Virus record (IMG/VR): IMGVR_UViG_3300029745_000183
Coordinates: 1-7,267 of that record
Direction: 5' to 3' (one strand)
DNA from: a virus
Taxonomy: Duplodnaviria; Heunggongvirae; Uroviricota; Caudoviricetes
Length of the DNA: 7,267 bases
Shown here: one piece after another, positions 1 through 7,267 of the stretch
How positions within the stretch are numbered: position 1 is the first letter of the stretch
Layout of the letters: each line of letters opens with the position of its first letter
Position numbers and translations under genes: made by a program
Notes under the pieces: generated by a model
The model's database searches: none
Seen by the model: the letters and a program-made list of their open reading frames with translations, nothing else
What the model was told of the DNA's origin: nothing

Positions 1-192
1 GTGACGCGAAAAGATGCCTGGTACTTTGCCAACTATGACCCGCGTATGAAGCGTGAAGGCCTGCATTATGTCGTGGTTGAGCGGGATGAAAAGTACATGG
101 CGAATTTTGACGAGATGGTGCCGGAGTTCATCGAAAAAATGGACGAGGCACTGGCTGAAATTGGTTTTGTATTTGGGGAGCAATGGCGATGA
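1..192 (+). CDS. 3' end (63 codons) of an unidentified protein, probably truncated at the window edge
   Basis: Frame is open from base 1 to TGA at 190-192. The first codon is GTG at the window edge, so the real start is most likely upstream. The stop overlaps the ATG of the next ORF (ATGA at 189-192). No motif I can assign. Confidence 0.5.
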
Positions 193-347
193 CGCATCCT
201 CACGATAATATCCGGGTAGGCGCGATCACTTTCGTCTACTCCATTACAAAGCGAGGCTGGGTATTTCCCGGCCTTTCTGTTATCAGAAATCCACTGAAAG
301 CACAGCGGCTGGCTGAGAAGATAAATAACAAACAGGAGGATATATGA
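189..347 (+). CDS. Hypothetical small protein (52 aa), translationally coupled on both sides
   Basis: ATG at 189 overlaps the upstream stop (ATGA) and its TGA at 345-347 overlaps the ATG of the DGQHR gene (ATGA). GGGGAG sits 9 nt upstream of the ATG. It is below the 60-aa cutoff of the supplied ORF track. No recognisable domain. Confidence 0.3.
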
Positions 348-1408
348 GTCAGGTTGGTAATCATTCATTCGAATTTCCGGCATCGCAAGGTGTACAGGGT
401 GGTACTGTTACACTCTTCCTTACCATACCAGGAAGATCGCTGGCTCGTTTCCTCGCTTCAGATAATTACGGCCATACACTGGAACGCTCTCAGCGAGAAA
501 TTAATCCAAATCGAGTACGAAAATTTTTAAATTATCTCACTAACGCAGACTCAAGAAATGAGCCTTTTATCATTCCCCCTCTCGTAGGTAACTGTGATTC
601 GAATATAGAATTTGTACCGTTTGGCAACACAAATGTTGGTATAGCCAGAATTCCCCTCGACGCCGAAATAAAACTTTTTGATGGTCAACATCGTGCAGCT
701 GGCATTGAGATATTTTGCCGAAGTTCCCCATCAACGCTCATGGTTCCCATGATGCTTACAATGAATCTGCCGCTAAAAACCCGGCAGCAGTTCTTTTCGG
801 ACATAAATAACAACGTTTCTAAGCCATCAGCGACCATCAATATGGCGTATAACGGCCGGGATGATATTGCTCAGGGAATGATATCCTTCCTGACCCAACA
901 TACTGTATTTGCCGATATAACCGATTTTGAACACAACGTAGTGCCATTAAAAAGTAATATGTGGGTGAGTTTCAAGGCACTCACTGATGCAACGTCAAAG
1001 TTCGCTAGGAACGGCAATCAACAACTTGAAATGGGATATATAGAATCTGTCTGGGAGGCATGGATTACACTAACTCAGATTGACTCAATCCGACATGGTG
1101 TACACCACGCTACGTACAAGCGCGATTATATTCAGTTCCATGGAGTAATGATTAACGCTTTCGGTTTTGCGGTTCAACAGATGATGGTTAATCATTCCAT
1201 CGCAGAAATAACTTCTATGATCGAAAAACTATGTGCAACTACCAGCTCTGCAGAAAGAGAGGATTTTTTTCTGATGGATAACTGGGCGGGGATCTGCACG
1301 AAAGCCAGCCAGGAAAAACTATCTGTTATTGCCAATGTGGCAGCGCAGAAAGCAGCAGCAAACAGACTGATACAAGCTTTTACCAAAGGAAGTCTGGAAA
1401 CAACTTAA
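344..1408 (+). CDS. DGQHR-domain protein, DndB-like (ParB/Srx-fold superfamily), 354 aa
   Basis: Contains the exact family-defining motif DGQHR (in IKLFDGQHRAAGIEIF), preceded by FIIPPLVGN. Length is in the DndB range. AGGAGG lies 4 nt upstream of ATG 344. No DndC/D/E-like genes follow in the window. Confidence 0.75.
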   Translation: MSQVGNHSFEFPASQGVQGGTVTLFLTIPGRSLARFLASDNYGHTLERSQREINPNRVRKFLNYLTNADSRNEPFIIPPLVGNCDSNIEFVPFGNTNVGIARIPLDAEIKLFDGQHRAAGIEIFCRSSPSTLMVPMMLTMNLPLKTRQQFFSDINNNVSKPSATINMAYNGRDDIAQGMISFLTQHTVFADITDFEHNVVPLKSNMWVSFKALTDATSKFARNGNQQLEMGYIESVWEAWITLTQIDSIRHGVHHATYKRDYIQFHGVMINAFGFAVQQMMVNHSIAEITSMIEKLCATTSSAEREDFFLMDNWAGICTKASQEKLSVIANVAAQKAAANRLIQAFTKGSLETT

Positions 1409-1485
1409 TGAATCAACATTGTCTCATATCAGCATGCTGTACGGCGTCTTTAAGGAACGGTGAGCATGAAAAACAAAATCATCAT

Positions 1486-1512
1486 GGAGCTACAGGCTCC
1501 TTTTTTATTATT
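1486..1512 (+). terminator. Candidate intrinsic terminator downstream of the DGQHR gene
   Basis: GGAGC-tacag-GCTCC hairpin (5-bp stem) followed directly by TTTTTTATTATT. The stem is short, so this is weak to moderate. Confidence 0.35.
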
Positions 1513-1561
1513 CGCATTCACCCTCAAGCGTATTAACCAACAATTCAGGGATTAATGAAAG

Positions 1562-1780
1562 ATGGCAGACATCATTGATTCAGCATCAGAAATTGAAGAA
1601 TTACAGCGCAACACAGCAATAAAAATGCGCCGCCTGAACCACCAGGCTATATCTGCCACTCATTGTTGTGAGTGTGGCGATCCGATAGATGAACGAAGAC
1701 GCCTGGCCGTTCAGGGTTGTCGGACTTGTGCAAGTTGCCAGGAGGAGATCGAACTTAAGAACAAACAATGGGGACTGTGA
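1562..1780 (+). CDS. TraR/DksA-family C4-type zinc-finger protein (72 aa)
   Basis: Small protein with two Cys pairs (CCEC and CRTCASC) in the spacing typical of the TraR/DksA C4 zinc finger. Homologues are common in lambdoid early regions. Confidence 0.7.
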   Translation: MADIIDSASEIEELQRNTAIKMRRLNHQAISATHCCECGDPIDERRRLAVQGCRTCASCQEEIELKNKQWGL

Positions 1781-1827
1781 TGGCTTCAAAGCAGCAAATT
1801 TCAACATCGTCCAACTGAGGTGTAAAA

Positions 1828-2067
1828 ATGTTCAGAATCATTTTTCCTAACACCTGGTACGTCGACCACCACGGCACTCCCTGCAAAATCCTGCGTTCTA
1901 CCCACAACAAAGTTCACTACATCCGAAAAGGCAGAACATGTATCGCCAGCATGTTCCGCTTTAATCATGACTTTGAACCTGTGAATAAAGCTGATGCAGA
2001 TCGGATAGCAGAAGAGATCGAAACGGCAGAACACATTAAGAAGTTACGTGCCATACGCAGGAAATAG
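1828..2067 (+). CDS. Hypothetical phage protein (79 aa)
   Basis: ORF with a good SD (GAGGTG, 7-nt spacer), co-oriented with the xis-int operon. No motif recognised. Confidence 0.55.
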   Translation: MFRIIFPNTWYVDHHGTPCKILRSTHNKVHYIRKGRTCIASMFRFNHDFEPVNKADADRIAEEIETAEHIKKLRAIRRK

Positions 2068-2206
2068 AAAAATTGATAAATTCAATACTGCATTACTCAG
2101 CATTAAATTTATCTCTATGACCAGTCAAGAGATGTACCTGCCATGAGCTTAATATCATGTCAGATATATCGGTCACAAACTCCCTCAGCAGCTAAGAGGA
2201 GGACAA

Positions 2207-2443
2207 ATGTCTCGACTAATCACTTTACAGGACTGGGCTAAAGAAGAATTTGGGGACTTAGCACCAAGTGAGCGAGTTCTGAAAAAATACGCGCAAGGGA
2301 AAATGATGGCCCCACCCGCTATAAAAGTTGGTCGCTACTGGATGATTGACCGAAATTCCCGTTTTGTAGGAACGCTTGCAGAACCGCAACTCCCAATAAA
2401 CGCAAACCCAAAACTCCAACGGATAATCGCTGATGGCTGCTAG
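2207..2443 (+). CDS. xis: Excisionase (lambda Xis-like winged helix)
   Basis: N-terminal ITLQDW and a PPAIKVGRYW segment resemble lambda/HK022 Xis (LTLQEW ... PPPVKDGREY). AAGAGGAGG RBS. The 3' end overlaps the int start by 11 nt, as in lambda. Confidence 0.85.
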   Translation: MSRLITLQDWAKEEFGDLAPSERVLKKYAQGKMMAPPAIKVGRYWMIDRNSRFVGTLAEPQLPINANPKLQRIIADGC

Positions 2444-3575
2444 ACCCCGATCTCACAAAATCTCTATACCCAATTTATATTGCAAATTAGATAAGCGAAC
2501 CGGAAAGGTATATTGGCAATACAAACATCCACTATCCGGTCGTTTTCATAGCTTAGGAACTGATGAGAATGAAGCAAAACAAGTTGCTACTGAAGCAAAT
2601 ACCATTATTGCTGAACAACGTACCAGACAAATATTAAGCGTCAATGAGCGTCTGGAAAGAATGAAAGGCAGGCGCTCAGACATTACGGTGACAGAATGGC
2701 TTGATAAATATATTTCTATCCAGGAGGACAGGCTGCAACATAATGAACTAAGACCCAACTCCTATCGGCAAAAAGGCAAACCCATTCGTCTTTTCCGTGA
2801 GCATTGTGGAATGCAACACCTCAAGGATATTACCGCACTTGATATTGCCGAAATAATTGATGCTGTAAAGGCTGAAGGTCATAACAGGATGGCGCAAGTC
2901 GTGAGAATGGTGTTGATCGACGTCTTCAAAGAAGCACAACACGCAGGACATGTTCCGCCAGGATTTAACCCTGCGCAGGCAACAAAACAACCGCGAAATC
3001 GAGTAAACCGCCAAAGATTGTCACTGCTCGAATGGCAGGCAATATTTGAAAGCGTAAGCAGACGGCAGCCCTATTTAAAATGCGGCATGCTACTTGCTCT
3101 TGTTACTGGACAACGTTTAGGCGATATCTGCAATTTGAAATTCTCTGATATATGGGACGACATGTTGCACATTACTCAGGAAAAAACCGGTTCAAAACTT
3201 GCTATTCCGCTTAACCTGAAATGCGATGCTCTGAATATTACCCTTCGTGAAGTTATATCTCAGTGCAGGGATGCTGTTGTTAGTAAATATCTGGTCCATT
3301 ACCGTCACACTACCTCTCAAGCAAACAGAGGAGACCAGGTTTCTGCAAATACTCTGACAACGGCTTTTAAAAAGGCCCGGGAAAAATGTGGCATAAAATG
3401 GGAGCAAGGAACTGCGCCCACATTTCATGAGCAGCGATCTCTCTCAGAACGGTTATATCGGGAACAGGGTCTGGATACGCAAAAGTTGTTAGGCCATAAA
3501 TCCAGAAAAATGACCGACCGATACAATGATGATCGTGGTAAAGACTGGATTATCGTAGATATCAAAACAGCATAG
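2433..3575 (+). CDS. int: Tyrosine recombinase, lambda Int family integrase (380 aa)
   Basis: N-terminus RPRSHKISIPNLY and C-terminal TFHEQRSLSERLY...LLGHKS...RYNDDRG match lambda Int (RRRSHERRDLPPNLY; TFHELRSLSARLY...LLGHKSDTM...YRDDRG), including the catalytic R, HxxR and Y positions. Confidence 0.95.
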   Translation: MAARPRSHKISIPNLYCKLDKRTGKVYWQYKHPLSGRFHSLGTDENEAKQVATEANTIIAEQRTRQILSVNERLERMKGRRSDITVTEWLDKYISIQEDRLQHNELRPNSYRQKGKPIRLFREHCGMQHLKDITALDIAEIIDAVKAEGHNRMAQVVRMVLIDVFKEAQHAGHVPPGFNPAQATKQPRNRVNRQRLSLLEWQAIFESVSRRQPYLKCGMLLALVTGQRLGDICNLKFSDIWDDMLHITQEKTGSKLAIPLNLKCDALNITLREVISQCRDAVVSKYLVHYRHTTSQANRGDQVSANTLTTAFKKAREKCGIKWEQGTAPTFHEQRSLSERLYREQGLDTQKLLGHKSRKMTDRYNDDRGKDWIIVDIKTA

Positions 3576-3585
3576 AAAATAGCCA

Positions 3586-3622
3586 GTTTTGGGGAAGGGT
3601 TTTGGGGAAAGTTTTGGGGAAG
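3586..3622. repeat. Three tandem copies of GTTTTGGGGAA(G/A), period 12-13 bp
   Basis: Direct reading: copies start at 3586, 3599 and 3611, immediately 3' of the int stop codon. Confidence 0.6.
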
Positions 3623-3642
3623 ATTTTACATCATCATAAATC

Positions 3643-3675
3643 AACGGGCGTGTTATACGCCCGTTTCAATATTTA
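3643..3675. terminator. Bidirectional intrinsic terminator shared by int (+) and the icd fragment (-)
   Basis: Perfect 9-bp stem AACGGGCGT / ACGCCCGTT with a 5-nt loop, followed by TTTCAATATTT on the + strand and a U-rich run on the minus strand. It lies 23 nt beyond the icd stop codon. Confidence 0.65.
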
Positions 3676-3688
3676 ACACATGTAGTGA

Positions 3689-3853
3689 TTACATATTCTT
3701 GATGATCGCGTCACCAAACTCTGAACATTTCAGCAGTTTAGCGCCTTCCATCAGACGTTCGAAGTCATAGGTTACAGTCTTCGCGTTGATCGCGCCTTCC
3801 ATACCTTTAACAATCAGGTCTGCGGCTTCAGTCCAACCCATGTGGCGCAGCAT
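3689..3853 (-). pseudogene. icd: 3'-terminal fragment of isocitrate dehydrogenase (last 54 codons plus stop), icdC-like
   Basis: Minus-strand translation gives [54 protein letters not shown], which I recognise as the Icd C-terminus. An in-frame TAA two codons upstream ends the homology at about 3853, so no full-length icd is present. Confidence 0.85.
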
Positions 3854-3911
3854 TAGTTAGATGACTAAATCGTAACTATTTGACATAGCAACATAATTTT
3901 ACTAATTTGCA

Positions 3912-3948
3912 TATAACTCATTAGCCCTTAGCATTTCTATAACTCATT
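3912..3948. repeat. Two exact direct copies of TATAACTCATT, 26 bp apart
   Basis: Direct reading: copies at 3912-3922 and 3938-3948, in the AT-rich arm between the icd homology boundary and the mcrA 3' end. Confidence 0.5.
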
Positions 3949-4040
3949 GATTATAAACATGTGTTTTTGAGTTTTGATAACCATTTTTAGCATAAAAATA
4001 GCAGTTAACATTTGCAGAAGTTAAGATCAGAGAAAAATTT

Positions 4041-4054
4041 TACCCTGTAGGGTA
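4041..4054 (-). terminator. Weak candidate terminator downstream of mcrA
   Basis: TACCC-tgta-GGGTA hairpin about 35 nt past the mcrA stop, followed on the minus strand by AAATTTTTCTC. The stem is only 5 bp. Confidence 0.2.
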
Positions 4055-4086
4055 TTACGTCTTAAATGTGACTTTAATAAATAATT

Positions 4087-4920
4087 TTATTTCTGTAATC
4101 GGTTTATATTAACGTAAAGCATCTCGATTAGTTCTTTTGCATTTTTACTATAGTGCAATTCTCTATGGCAATTCGGACAAAGGGCAACACAGTTATCTGT
4201 TGTATCAGCACCACCTGAAGACAGGGGAATTACATGATGCACTTCCAAATATGGGTTTCCATCATTTAAATAAAACGGAGCATTTTTACCACAGTTTTCA
4301 CATATACCTTTACTTTGCTGTAAAATCCAAGCTTTTACCATCGGGTCTCGGACATAAACTTTTTGTAGTCTTTCTACCTCAACTGGTTTCCTAGAGCCCT
4401 CGGGTTGACTCAACGTTTTCTTAATTAATTTACTAACCCTCATATTCAGAAGCGATTCATCATCTGTAGGCTGTGAAAGCTCTGATAGTTCTCCACGTAT
4501 TATAGACGCCCAAAAACTGTCACTATAAATACCTGGAACATTTATCAATATTCGTTTCGTTCTATTGCCGGAAGGAATTTCCTTTCTCCCCGTACGACTA
4601 AAATAAGCCTGATAACCACACATCTTCAAGCGTATATCGCGGGGGCTATTACCAATCAAAGTAAAATATTCACCAGGATGGATTTTTCTTTCATCCAAAG
4701 AATGCATATGTTTTCTGACTGATGATGACGCCAGATATACTACGACTTGGGATACACCAGAATCAACCAACCGTTCAATGATATAATCAAGAGCGATATT
4801 GTAATCTTTGTTTCTGTCACCCGGCCCCCACGACTCAAGGATTAGACCATAAACACCATCCTCTTCACCTATCGAACACTCAGCTTTCAGTTCAATTCCA
4901 TTATTATCAAAAACATGCAT
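4087..4920 (-). CDS. mcrA: McrA, type IV modified-cytosine-specific restriction endonuclease (HNH), 277 aa
   Basis: Protein begins MHVFDNNGIELKAECSIGEEDGVYGLILESWGPGDRNKDY and ends with the HNH region CENCG...HHVIP...CVALCPNCHRELH. Length and sequence match my recollection of E. coli McrA, which is encoded on e14 next to pin. Confidence 0.93.
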   Translation of the reverse strand: MHVFDNNGIELKAECSIGEEDGVYGLILESWGPGDRNKDYNIALDYIIERLVDSGVSQVVVYLASSSVRKHMHSLDERKIHPGEYFTLIGNSPRDIRLKMCGYQAYFSRTGRKEIPSGNRTKRILINVPGIYSDSFWASIIRGELSELSQPTDDESLLNMRVSKLIKKTLSQPEGSRKPVEVERLQKVYVRDPMVKAWILQQSKGICENCGKNAPFYLNDGNPYLEVHHVIPLSSGGADTTDNCVALCPNCHRELHYSKNAKELIEMLYVNINRLQK

Positions 4921-5026
4921 AATATTAATCTTTAATCAATTTTTCACGACAATACTACTTTTATTGATAAAATTGCAACAAGTTGCTGTTGTTTTACTTT
5001 CTTTTGTACACAAAGTGTCTTTAACT

Positions 5027-5581
5027 TTATTTATCCCCTGCAGGAAACCTCTTATACAAAGTTGACACACCAACATCATAGATAATCGCCACCTTCTGGC
5101 GAGGAACTCCTGATGCAATTAATCGTCCGGCCTGTTCCCATTGTTCTGGTGTAAGTTTGGGACGACGTCCACCAATTCGTCCCTGTGCGCGAGCAGCTTC
5201 CAGTCCAGCTTTTGTTCTTTCAACAATCAGTTCACGCTCCATTTCAGCCAGGGCACCCATCACATGAAAGAAAAAGCGCCCCATTGGGGTACTGGTATCA
5301 ATTGAATCCGTCAGACTACGAAAGTTGATGCCTCGTTCGCGCAACTCCTCCACCAGCACGACAAGATGCCGCATACTGCGCCCCAGTCGGTCCAGTTTCC
5401 AGACCACCAGCGTATCACCTGCCGATAATGTCCTGAGCAGTTTTTTCAGTCCCGGCCTTTCGGACTTTGTACCGCTTATCTTGTCTTCAAAAATCAGCTC
5501 GCATCCTGCACAGTTCAGCGCATTACGTTGTAGATCTGTGTTCTGGTCATTTGTTGACACACGTACATAGCCAATAAGCAT
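5027..5581 (-). CDS. pin: Pin DNA invertase, serine recombinase of the Gin/Hin/Pin family (184 aa)
   Basis: From the internal Met the protein reads MLIGYVRVSTNDQNTDLQRNAL..., the canonical invertase N-terminus with catalytic Ser in VRVSTNDQ, and has a C-terminal HTH. GGGAG RBS 8 nt upstream of ATG at 5581. The track ORF start at 5617 is an in-frame upstream extension. Confidence 0.93.
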   Translation of the reverse strand: MLIGYVRVSTNDQNTDLQRNALNCAGCELIFEDKISGTKSERPGLKKLLRTLSAGDTLVVWKLDRLGRSMRHLVVLVEELRERGINFRSLTDSIDTSTPMGRFFFHVMGALAEMERELIVERTKAGLEAARAQGRIGGRRPKLTPEQWEQAGRLIASGVPRQKVAIIYDVGVSTLYKRFPAGDK

Positions 5582-5607
5582 GGTAGATCTCCCTGACAAA
5601 AGCAGGA

Positions 5608-6063
5608 ATGATGCCATTTGCTCGTTATTTCTGCATTTTCATAAACGTTGGTTTGGGAGAAGCGGCAAAACGAAATGTGGGGACAGGGGAAAATCAGATA
5701 CCGGACATGGCCTCTTTTGCCAGTGGTGATGGATGGATGAAATTACCCAACGGGAAAATCCTGCAATATGGTCGTGGTGCGATTACGCCGACATTATCGA
5801 CGCAAACAATGAGAATTACATTCAGCATCCCTTTTCCTAAAGAAGTGGACTGCGCCATGCTTACCCATTCTGGTGATGGTGGTGCGCCTTTAGGCGCTGG
5901 ACGGGGATTCGTGATGACTGCAGAAGGTCCAACACTAACCGGTTTTAATTCCGCTTACAGAACTGCATCAACCAGCTCCACAGTAACCTCTATAACTGTA
6001 TTGACGATTTGCAGTGATTGCAGGACGTTACGGGTAGCCTCATCGTTCTGTGGTTTCTGTTAA
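5608..6063 (+). pseudogene. Orphan side-tail-fibre C-terminal fragment (stfE-like), the variable cassette of the Pin inversion module
   Basis: Divergent from pin and reads through the crossover site. The segment [19 protein letters not shown] resembles tail-fibre C-terminal domains. No fibre N-terminal region, no tfa gene, and a Cys-rich, non-protein-like tail ([17 protein letters not shown]). ATG 5608 is probably not a genuine start. Confidence 0.4.
5636..5661. other. Pin/Gin/Hin-type recombination crossover site (pix-like), 26 bp
   Basis: TTTTCATAAACG-TT-GGTTTGGGAGAA: two 12-bp half-sites around a 2-bp core. Reverse complement TTCTCCCAAACC-AA-CGTTTATGAAAA resembles hixL TTCTTGAAAACC-AA-GGTTTTTGATAA. 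Sits 55 bp upstream of the pin start, the expected position. Confidence 0.55.
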
Positions 6064-6068
6064 TCGAT

Positions 6069-6269
6069 TTATCCATTAGATTTTTCATAAAGCTCAGGTT
6101 TAAATGGCAACCGTCCGCAAGTTCTATATGCAGCTTCTGCTGCACGTCCTTTTGGAATTAACTGGCCCGGACGGTTTCGCCACTGATAAACGGCTTCAGT
6201 TGTTATGCCGAAAAAAGCAGCAACTTTCTCAATACTGCCGAAGTAGCTTTCGATATCGTCAGTTGTCAT
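6069..6269 (-). CDS. Cro-like HTH regulator (YdaS/Cro family), 66 aa
   Basis: Small HTH protein (VAAFFGITTEAVYQWRN...IPKGRAAEAAYRTCGRLPFKPELY) transcribed divergently from the CI-like repressor. GGAGGG RBS. Confidence 0.8.
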   Translation of the reverse strand: MTTDDIESYFGSIEKVAAFFGITTEAVYQWRNRPGQLIPKGRAAEAAYRTCGRLPFKPELYEKSNG

Positions 6270-6366
6270 ACGCCCTCCAAACTAAGTTTTATTAGATGCT
6301 AATTACAAATCTATCTTTGGTCAATAAAAACTAAGATTACTTAGCAATTCAAGAAATGGTGCTCCT
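6270..6366. promoter_or_regulatory. Divergent promoter/operator region between the cro-like and cI-like genes
   Basis: 97-bp AT-rich intergenic region. Two inverted repeats of form CTAAG-N4-(C/A)TTAG at 6282-6295 and 6331-6344. Minus-strand sigma70-like elements TTGACC (6319-6324) and TAGCAT (6296-6301) with a 17-bp spacer, a candidate pR for the cro-like gene. Confidence 0.55.
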
Positions 6367-6993
6367 ATGGAAACGGTTGGTCAGCGTATAAAAGCTCTGA
6401 GAAGAGTTACCGGAACGTCCCAGAAAGAATTGGGTAAATTTTGTGGAGTAAGCGACGTTGCTGTGGGGTACTGGGAGAAAGACATCAATACCCCTGGTGG
6501 GGAGGCACTTTCGAAATTAGCGAAGTTCTTCAATACGTCAATAGATTACATTCTTTATGGTGCTGAGTTTGAAGGCAAACTCGTCACAAACATGCGCAGA
6601 GTTCCTGTAATATCGTGGGTTCAGGCTGGGCAGTTTACTGAGTGCAGGGCAGCAGAAGTGTTTAGTGAAGTGGACAAGTGGGTAGATACATCATTAAAGA
6701 TTGGTGATAACTCATTTGCATTAGAGGTTAAAGGTGACTCCATGACTAACCCTAATGGCCTCCCAACAATACCAGAAGGCGCAACAGTGATTGTAGATCC
6801 AGATGCAGAACCTCGTCATGGAAAAATAGTCATCGCTCGACTTGATGGAACAAACGAAGCTACAGTAAAAAAATTAGTCATCGATGGCCCTCAAAAGTTT
6901 TTAGTGCCATTAAATCCTCGGTATCCCAACATCCCTATCAATGGTAATTGCCTTATCATTGGTGTAGTCAAAGGAGTTCAATACGAACTCTAA
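6367..6993 (+). CDS. CI-like prophage repressor: N-terminal XRE HTH plus C-terminal S24 (LexA-like) autopeptidase domain, 208 aa
   Basis: HTH at the N-terminus (QKELGKFCGVSDVAVGYWE). Ala-Gly cleavage-site candidate in WVQAGQF. Catalytic Ser in KGDSM and Lys in ATVKKL, as in LexA and lambda CI. Confidence 0.88.
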   Translation: METVGQRIKALRRVTGTSQKELGKFCGVSDVAVGYWEKDINTPGGEALSKLAKFFNTSIDYILYGAEFEGKLVTNMRRVPVISWVQAGQFTECRAAEVFSEVDKWVDTSLKIGDNSFALEVKGDSMTNPNGLPTIPEGATVIVDPDAEPRHGKIVIARLDGTNEATVKKLVIDGPQKFLVPLNPRYPNIPINGNCLIIGVVKGVQYEL

Positions 6994-7058
6994 GACCTCT
7001 CTTCTCTAACTAAGGCACCGAACTAAGAAAAGTTTGGTGTTTTCTCTTGCCATAATAA

Positions 7059-7072
7059 CTAAGTTAAGTTAG
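7059..7072. promoter_or_regulatory. Third operator-like inverted repeat CTAAG-ttaa-GTTAG downstream of the repressor gene
   Basis: Same half-site architecture as the two sites in the cro-cI intergenic region. Lies in a 247-bp untranslated region upstream of the next + strand gene, where a pL/oL equivalent would be expected. Confidence 0.3.
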
Positions 7073-7240
7073 ATTTTATATCAAAGATAACGAACAGGCA
7101 GGACGCCCACGAAGTAGCCGCCTGGGGCATATGAAGTCCAGGATGATTCGTTAGCAACAAAAAAGCGCCCTACAGGACGCTTAGCTCTTTAACAATCTGG
7201 TCCCCATCAACAAGTAACTGATAACTTGAGGAGGTGTGAA

Positions 7241-7267
7241 ATGCACAAAACAGAACCAAAAATCGTC
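7241..7267 (+). CDS. 5' end of an unidentified gene (first 9 codons, MHKTEPKIV), truncated by the window end
   Basis: ATG at 7241 preceded by a strong GAGGAGG SD with a 6-nt spacer. Co-oriented with the repressor gene. Confidence 0.4.

Follow-up and report, generated by a model that had tools for sequence, protein, structure and literature searches.

The described immunity systems closest to the one considered here are those of phages P22 and 21. The P22 repressor, C2, recognises 18-bp sites, contacting positions 2-7 and 12-17 and making no contacts at positions 8-11, and prefers an A/T-rich centre (PMC4267663); Val33 of this protein fits the TTAA methyl cleft (PMC2995052), and on a site carrying a T-to-C change at position 3 the binding of the repressor is only non-specific (PMC4267663). 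The phage 21 record annotates the right and left operators (OR and OL), the start of the leftward early promoter (PL), boxA and nut. The present analysis concerns a 7,267-nucleotide (nt) stretch of DNA, here called the window, from a Caudoviricetes virus (IMG/VR record IMGVR_UViG_3300029745_000183, positions 1 to 7,267), in which inverted repeats of the pentamer CTAAG recur on both sides of a repressor gene. A preliminary description, made from the letters of the sequence, had proposed that these dyads are repressor operators in two regulatory regions, a reading now supported by the flanking genes, promoter overlap, lambdoid gene order, conservation and co-occurrence with a particular recognition helix. 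It is highly probable (roughly 0.88) on these grounds that the dyads serve as operators in the immunity region of a lambdoid prophage, one with the architecture of P22 and phage 21, and are bound by its repressor and its Cro protein. Their half-site specificity is distinct from that of P22 and 21 and appears to be undescribed.

Three matches to CTAAG-N4-NTTAG are present, at 6282-6295 (CTAAGTTTTATTAG), 6331-6344 (CTAAGATTACTTAG) and 7059-7072 (CTAAGTTAAGTTAG), and a pattern scan places them exactly where the preliminary description had put them. The second is a perfect palindrome, matching the pattern on both the plus and the minus strand. No further match occurs in the 7267-base window, for which 0.04 are expected by chance, and the count was reached in 0 of 200 dinucleotide-preserving shuffles. 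All three dyads carry AA directly 5' of CTAAG, and the 7-mer AACTAAG is found in six copies (0.72 expected), five of them on the plus strand between 6280 and 7063. A repeat search of 6200-7110 that was blind to the pattern recovered the same sites as its top and longest families (D1-D3 and I1). The full operator form spans 18 bp, AnCTAAG-N4-CTTAGnT, and the N4 centres of the four sites recognised in the window (the fourth, at 7021-7038, is degenerate) are TTTT, ATTA, TTAA and AAAA, composed of A and T only. Chance recurrence of an A/T-rich word might be suspected in intergenic DNA that is itself A/T-rich, the more so as AACTAAG occurs in isolation within the integrase gene (2746-2752) and again, as an orphan, at 7008-7014; the shuffles, the low expected count and the retention of the positions in nine other genera have already refuted this explanation. 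The orphan at 7008-7014 (AACTAAG, plus strand) has no dyad partner, reads AACCAAA in phage mEp460 and is probably not functional. The preliminary description had put ACTAAG here at 7008-7013, which is off by one: ACTAAG occupies 7009-7014 and AACTAAG 7008-7014. A second orphan half-site at 6990-6994, also without a dyad partner and not conserved, was rejected, and a third OL site was rejected together with these orphans for the same lack of partner and conservation.

The first two dyads lie between divergent genes and the third upstream of the next early-left gene, as the preliminary description had stated. The 97-nt gap that holds the first two separates a cro-like gene for a 66-residue protein (6069-6269, minus strand; Pfam P22_Cro PF14549, E=4.4e-11) from a gene for a 208-residue repressor (6367-6993, plus strand; Pfam HTH_3 1e-10, Peptidase_S24 9e-28), and the third dyad stands 170 nt before a plus-strand open reading frame (ORF) that begins at 7242. 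Residues 3-65 of the repressor match the N-terminal domain of P22 C2 (E ~2e-9, phmmer against PDB entries 2r1j, 3jxb and 1adr), and the C-terminal half corresponds to the C-terminal domain of lambda cI (E=7.5e-28), with VQAG (Ala87-Gly88), GDSM (Ser125) and VKKL aligned to the lambda cleavage site and the catalytic serine and lysine. By sequence, the protein is predicted to join an N-terminal helix-turn-helix (HTH) to a C-terminal LexA-like self-cleaving domain in the manner of a lambdoid repressor. Its nearest studied relative in the phage collection is phage 21 cI (48.8% identity over the full length, E=1e-66), and the Cro-like protein is 30% identical to phage 21 Cro (E=5e-9).

A motif search in related elements, as the preliminary description had proposed, finds the sites at the same offsets in nine other genera. 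A scan of one genome per species yielded 20 orthologous regions, with repressors 63-90% identical to that of the window, from Enterobacter, Kosakonia, Kluyvera, Serratia, Rahnella, Yersinia, Rouxiella, Providencia and Proteus. Ahead of the repressor ATG, a CTAA-N6-TTAG dyad is found at a distance of about 35-48 nt in 16 of the 20 regions and a further one at about 82-97 nt in 18 of them, and a dyad also follows the repressor stop codon, at about 66-113 nt, in the 13 of the 20 that also have a PL-like promoter; typical offsets are ~86 and ~37 nt before the ATG and ~69 nt after the stop. In these sites the N4 varies (TTTT, TTTG, TTAA, TTAT, TGTT, ATTA, ATTG, ATAA) and the flanks diverge. In an alignment of 16 OR regions, no variation is seen in 15 of the 20 half-site columns, compared with 14 of the 88 others (Fisher p=6e-7). 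Across the 18-bp sites of the orthologues, positions 1 and 3-7 are conserved and position 2 is variable, with C at half-site position 3 in 98% of half-sites. A symmetrised position weight matrix (PWM), built only from the sites of the other genera, gives its four best scores in the window at 7057 (25.6), 6280 (21.9), 6329 (19.3) and 7021 (12.1), the next hit being 1.0; in random sequences of the same size the maximum averages 4.8 and its 99th percentile is 13.8. Above a score of 6, the same four sites and no others are found in the 13 kb and 11 kb of two whole phages. In some relatives the layout itself differs. In a Serratia metagenome-assembled genome (MAG; L095, 1011-1073), a gammaproteobacterial MAG (L104, 935-997) and Rouxiella loci L091, L092 and L094, all of them more distant orthologues, neither a cro homologue nor an OL was found beside the repressor gene. 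Two further CTAAG dyads stand 430-570 nt upstream of that gene in L095 and L104, which suggests that the same operator is used there in a regulon of different organisation.

Within the OR region, the cro-proximal operator, in the OR1 position, is a pattern match at 6280-6297 (AACTAAGTTTTATTAGAT; PWM 21.9) whose CTAA and TTAG are invariant across the 16 orthologous regions. It overlaps the last 2 nt of the -10 element and the predicted start site of a PR-like promoter for cro on the minus strand (6296-6324), which has a -35 of TTGACC (6324-6319), a 17-nt spacer and a -10 of TAGCAT (6301-6296), with 9 of 12 consensus matches. A simple consensus promoter scan of 5950-7267 returned three promoter-like sites, two of which are the expected rightward (PR-like) and leftward (PL-like) promoters. 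The orthologues keep the PR -35 as GGTCAA, and their PR -10 reads TAATAT. The repressor-proximal operator, in the OR3 position, is a palindromic match at 6329-6346 (AACTAAGATTACTTAGCA; PWM 19.3). None of the 16 orthologues departs from its TAAGAT (6332-6337) or its TTAG, so that the first two "central" bases are invariant as well, and phage 21 and the Photorhabdus and Xenorhabdus relatives likewise have TAAGAT in their counterpart of this site. Because of this invariance and recurrence, TAAGAT is a candidate -10 of the repressor maintenance promoter; it is without a good -35, and the promoter is not confidently placed. Between the two operators, the position equivalent to the P22/21 OR2 (6304-6321, TACAAATCTATCTTTGGT) is at best a weak site, with a PWM score of 0.0, which is background. 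A third, central OR operator is expected here from P22 and lambda and the position fits, and with such a score it is not claimed. The position scores better in Rahnella (10.4) and in LLS and Enterobacter (5.6) and at background in most orthologues; its right half is conserved because the PR -35 overlaps it. The spacing of the whole region follows phage 21 closely. In both, the central position shares its first 3 nt with the PR -35 and the cro-proximal site its first 2-3 nt with the PR -10, and the OR site starts, which are 22-26 nt apart in phage 21, are 24 and 25 nt apart in the window. The repressor-proximal site lies 20 nt before the ATG in the window, whereas it abuts the ATG in P22 and 21.

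The OL region offers a second cluster of putative operators, placed over the leftward early promoter downstream of the repressor gene, as in lambdoid phages. OL1 (7057-7074, AACTAAGTTAAGTTAGAT) is a pattern match with the best PWM score of the window (25.6) and is identical in sequence in most orthologues. It lies in the spacer and -10 of a PL-like promoter on the plus strand (7047-7075) with a -35 of TTGCCA (7047-7052), a 17-nt spacer and a -10 of TAGATT (7070-7075), again with 9 of 12 consensus matches; the predicted start is near 7082 and the promoter faces the early-left ORF at 7242. OL2 (7021-7038, AACTAAGAAAAGTTTGGT) has a consensus left half and a degenerate right half, scores fourth best (PWM 12.1) and ends 8 nt upstream of the PL -35. 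The preliminary description had noted ACTAAG at 7022-7027; this is no lone half-site but the left half of the degenerate 18-bp OL2. The CTAA of this left half is invariant in 12 orthologues, and in the Yersinia, Providencia and Proteus orthologues the site is a full dyad. The invariant columns of the OL alignment are CTAA in the upstream site, TTG in the -35, and TAAG and TTAGATT in the downstream site. Here too the spacing recalls phage 21. A -35 (TTGACC in phage 21, TTGCCA in the window) is followed after 4 nt by the 18-bp OL1; 8 nt separate the end of OL1 from the annotated start in phage 21, and the same distance places the start in the window at ~7082; and OL2 ends 7 nt before the -35 in phage 21 and 8 nt before it in the window.

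The OL2 stretch has a second possible function. Directly after the repressor gene, at 7012-7043, the plus strand has a terminator-like hairpin (RNA fold -15.1 kcal/mol, z=-3.0) with a U-rich tract behind it, and the AACACC...GGTGTT arms of the hairpin are kept in orthologues. Its loop and descending arm coincide with OL2, of which, in the E. coli clade, the right half (GTTTGGT) is the descending arm. The same DNA may therefore serve both as transcript end and as repressor site, and the conservation of OL2 is doubly explained, since its right half also forms an arm of the hairpin. Overlaps of this kind allow the alternative that the pentamers are simply promoter and terminator elements (TTAGAT(T) and TAAGAT as -10 elements, GTTTGGTG as a terminator stem) and that the dyads are incidental. 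The right half of OL1 does overlap the PL -10 TAGATT, the invariant TAAGAT falls inside OR3, and the right half of OL2 sits in the -15.1 kcal/mol hairpin. The left halves (AACTAAG) of all four sites, however, lie outside the hexamers and are equally invariant, and the cro-proximal site lies downstream of the -10 of PR, at a place where one would not expect a promoter element. In addition, one type of dyad is found in four places at two different promoters, and the motif shifts as a unit with the repressor helix while the leader downstream stays unchanged. Promoter and terminator constraint as the whole explanation is accordingly rated highly improbable, and the operator reading is retained.

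The helix association provides a further argument. Many loci with different repressors share a conserved leader RNA at the start of the PL transcript, described below, and a leader common to many immunity types serves as a natural control for an association between motif and helix. Among the loci that share it, 101 of 101 whose repressor carries the helix GVSDV(A/S/T)VGYWE have CTAA-N6-TTAG within 125 nt upstream, as against 0 of ~75 with other repressors; many of these loci are near-identical, so the count of 101 overstates their independence. Repressors with the helix GVSHVAISQWE (Photorhabdus, Xenorhabdus) are paired with TTAAG-N4-CTTAA dyads, and those with GVNRVTVTGWE (Morganella, Proteus) with GTAGG-N4-CCTAC dyads, at the same positions in each case, and in these two groups of relatives three sites precede the repressor ATG and two follow the stop codon. 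The operator letters thus change with the letters of the recognition helix. The comparison with P22 and phage 21 is of the same kind. The window encodes a homologous repressor DNA-binding domain and a homologous Cro, and its sites, like those of P22 and 21, are 18-bp dyads of 7+4+7 geometry with an A/T-rich, variable and presumably uncontacted centre. Positions 4-7 of the half-site (TAAG) are identical, and the half-site differs at position 3, where the window has C (AACTAAG) and the P22/21 type has T (ATTTAAG-N4-CTTAAAT). On the protein side, the recognition helix reads SDVAVGYW in place of the SNVAISQW of P22 and 21, a difference at four positions (N32D, I35V, S36G and Q37Y in P22 numbering), and the valine of the methyl cleft is kept, P22 Val33 corresponding to Val31 in the 208-residue repressor. 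The Cro helix reads EAVYQW here and AAVSQW in phage 21, and (S/T/P)EA(V/I/F)YQW is kept in 13 orthologues. Since the change to C at position 3 is reported to abolish specific binding by the P22 repressor, P22 and the immunity type described here should, by analogy, be heteroimmune. The repressor of the window can be regarded as a natural specificity variant of the P22 repressor-operator pair, and as such it may be of interest to those who study direct and indirect readout.

A search of full-text literature found no paper containing the site strings, and the pentamers appear in an operator context only for C.Csp231I. This restriction-modification controller (C) protein binds CTAAG-n5-CTTAG and cross-talks with the region of the Rac prophage repressor (PMC9638921), which raises the alternative that the dyads are bound by another regulator, either a C protein with the same pentamers or a host factor. 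The C.Csp231I C-box does share the inverted pentamers and is bound by a small HTH dimer; its spacer, however, is 5 nt against 4 nt in the window, and all sites, those of the orthologues included, have N4 rather than n5. The window has neither a C gene nor a restriction-modification operon next to the sites, and the protein context and biology of C.Csp231I, the timing of restriction enzyme expression, are unrelated to the switch of the window. The motif, moreover, corresponds one-to-one with the GVSDVxVGYWE repressor across genera, and the closest solved relative of that repressor, P22 C2, binds dyads of exactly the 7+4+7 geometry. Control of the sites by a regulator other than the repressor and Cro is therefore considered very improbable indeed. 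Cross-talk of C.Csp231I-like C proteins with this common immunity region is conceivable by analogy.

With the dyads taken as operators, a mechanism can be outlined. Dimers of the 208-residue repressor and of the 66-residue Cro would bind the 18-bp dyads, A-n-CTAAG, four A/T-rich bases, CTTAG-n-T. The site at 6280-6297 extends over the last bases of the PR -10 and over the start point, so that its occupancy would block transcription of cro, whereas the site at 6329-6346 covers the likely -10 of the repressor promoter (TAAGAT), which Cro or an excess of repressor could shut. The site at 7057-7074 fills the PL spacer and -10 and the weaker site at 7021-7038 abuts the -35, and together they would block early-left transcription. 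SOS-induced cleavage of the repressor would release all of the sites, because the protein has the Ala-Gly/Ser/Lys self-cleavage domain of the lambda cI kind. In this outline we infer binding itself, protein-site affinities, cooperativity, the transcription starts and the location of the maintenance promoter, with P22 and lambda as the models for relative affinities, for cooperativity and for how repressor and Cro divide their tasks.

Several points weigh against this reading of the locus. OR has only two strong sites, with the P22/21 OR2 position at background, and OL likewise has two scoring sites, where lambdoid phages have three operators per region, so that the cooperative scheme with three operators known from lambda and P22 may be inapplicable here. 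The maintenance promoter has not been located with confidence. Conservation of the sites is partly confounded with promoter elements (TTAGATT at PL, TAAGAT at OR3 and GGTCAA at the PR -35) and, for OL2, with the terminator-like hairpin as well. The sites from which the PWM was built were chosen with the pattern of the preliminary description, which makes its recovery of the three exact sites circular; what does not depend on that pattern is the fourth site, the lack of further sites, the conservation of position and the association with the helix. The searched literature contains no binding or expression experiment on this immunity type. Finally, the switch in this particular window may be a remnant, because PR would transcribe cro alone before running into unrelated DNA.

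Outside the window, the module is widespread and stands in the expected surroundings. Of 5426 complete E. coli genomes, 513 contain at least 80% of window positions 5950-7267, and many E. coli chromosomes have the same 1.2 kb with an identity of 99% or above. The immunity region is also found in phages vB_EcoM-689R6 and vB_EcoS-569R4 and, at 95% and 77% respectively, in mEp460 and LLS, the mEp460 repressor being 98.6% identical to that of the window. In whole phages (vB_EcoM-689R6, mEp460) the gene order is Q...O-ymfL (a CII-like activator)-cro / repressor-(PL)-small ORFs-yfdP-yfdQ-xis-int. The whole phages that carry the module thus follow the lambdoid order, and the assignment of "right" and "left" made in the preliminary description is correct by it. 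The immunity module itself is intact in the window, and its right operon consists of cro alone.

Beyond cro the window runs into unrelated DNA. Homology to the phages and prophages that bear the module stops at about 6030, at the ymfL start codon. To the left of this point lie a C-terminal fragment of a tail-fibre gene (5608-6063), pin, mcrA, a 3' icd fragment, and the int and xis genes belonging to an element that integrates at icd. The junction at about 6030 was found in none of the 5426 complete E. coli genomes and in none of 80 IMG/VR loci (viral contigs). In E. coli genomes, window positions 1-3853 match one place and 3636 to ~5985 another. Within 2207-4920, xis and int on the plus strand are directly followed by a 54-codon 3' icd fragment (3689-3853, minus strand) and then by mcrA and pin, also on the minus strand, an arrangement expected for two tandem elements at icd or for a circular, excised e14-like element. 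Further left, at 344-1408 on the plus strand, a gene encodes a DndB-like/DGQHR-domain protein (Pfam DndB 3.8e-46; PADLOC DndB 4e-37). It stands beside genes for a TraR/DksA zinc-finger protein and a DUF4222 protein (1562-1780, 1828-2067), just upstream of xis and int, and no other dnd genes are present within the window; the DndB-like gene may be defence-related prophage cargo.

Beyond PL, the predicted transcript begins with the conserved structured leader RNA, 64 nt long (7089-7152, plus strand), some 7 nt after the predicted start, and it is this transcript that the OL sites and PL would gate. The leader consists of a closing helix (AACGAA/UUCGUU), an invariant core (AGGCAGGACGCCCACGAAGUAGCCGCC), a variable hairpin and GGAUGA. 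An exact-pattern scan finds it in at least 120 viral contigs, with 131 distinct variants among the matches listed; copies include those in K-12 e14 (locus L165, 107-180, minus strand), in L001 (7057-7129) and in L166-L285. Folding of 45 diverse copies with RNAalifold recovers the closing helix, an invariant 3-bp helix and the variable hairpin, with compensatory double changes in 9 of 14 pairs, paired cells at 95.1% against 73.4% in shuffles, and a covariation score of 0.525 against 0.128 in shuffles and at most 0.112 in controls with slid partners. The leader is fixed 19-22 nt after the -10 of PL-type promoters that have many different operators, precedes at least 76 different first ORFs and is present in one copy per phage; the PR operons of whole phages have no second copy. 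Rfam recognises no family in the window at gathering scores, nor at E<=1 for 5900-7267, the leader included. In phage HK022, putL lies just downstream of PL (PMC9378689), and the position of the leader recalls it. No similarity of sequence or model was found, and homology to HK022 putL/putR was rejected, a covariance model of the leader giving no hit in the HK022 immunity region or in phage 21. A local enrichment of terminators downstream of the leader, which would have supported antitermination, was looked for and is absent (21 of 121, compared with 39 of 121 for the control strand). Whether the leader represents a new cis-acting class, acting through put-like, factor-independent processive antitermination or through some other control of the early-left operon in N-less e14/SfV-like phages, is a speculation that we regard as rather doubtful.

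A GC-rich hairpin (7163-7182) comes next, followed by a boxA-like string (GCTCTTTAACAA, 7184-7195) read from the sequence, the whole feature spanning 7163-7195 on the plus strand. The hairpin scores as a terminator-like, intrinsic terminator structure on the minus strand (T-run 7162-7153). The boxA-like string resembles the boxA-L annotated in phage 21 (GCTCTTTA) and also the boxA of rrn and P22, is found in only some relatives (Kosakonia, Kluyvera) and is absent from K-12 e14; no boxB-like hairpin or N-like gene follows it. The first early-left ORF begins at 7242 and continues on the plus strand to the end of the window (7242-7267); in whole phages it encodes 68 residues (translation from vB_EcoM-689R6) and belongs to phrog_1744, of unknown function. 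An N-like protein as the product of this first ORF was rejected, as the protein is not arginine-rich and its PHROG is of unknown function. In E. coli RS218, the 193-nt small RNA sRNA-17 is reported to be encoded in a mEp460-like prophage and to have an ArcA site in its promoter (PMC7719688). The window contains neither the primer nor the end sequences of this RNA, which is unrelated to the dyads. In L002, L003, L008, L047, L102 and other loci these sequences map from a few hundred bases to 1 kb beyond PL, and sRNA-17 may be part of, or processed from, the repressor-controlled early-left transcript.

AnCTAAG-N4-CTTAGnT thus offers a concrete operator definition for a common immunity type, from which superinfection immunity groups could be predicted by sequence, in what is otherwise an ordinary lambdoid switch. 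With K-12 e14 (ymfK/cohE - ymfT/croE) the window shares the icd integration module, the nearby mcrA and pin and the PL leader RNA, and the presence of ymfL downstream of cro in whole phages reflects a shared prophage family context. Identity with the e14 immunity was considered and rejected: the e14 repressor has an unrelated N-terminus, the e14 dyads are of GTAC type and the ymfK-ymfT region contains no CTAA-N6-TTAG. P22 and 21 have three sites per region, where the window has two strong sites in OR and two in OL, and in place of the N gene and boxB that follow PL in those phages the window has the different, structured leader RNA. Lambda resembles the window in its divergent cI and cro genes, in operators placed over PR and the repressor maintenance promoter (PRM), in a second cluster at PL downstream of cI, and in a homologous repressor C-terminal domain with an Ala-Gly site and a Ser/Lys dyad. 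It has, in contrast, a DNA-binding domain of another type and 17-bp operators of unrelated sequence, and it has three operators per region, with demonstrated cooperativity and looping between OL and OR. The oR/oL layout of lambdoid phages invoked in the preliminary description is therefore upheld, with its closest parallel in the immunity region of P22 and phage 21 rather than in that of lambda itself.

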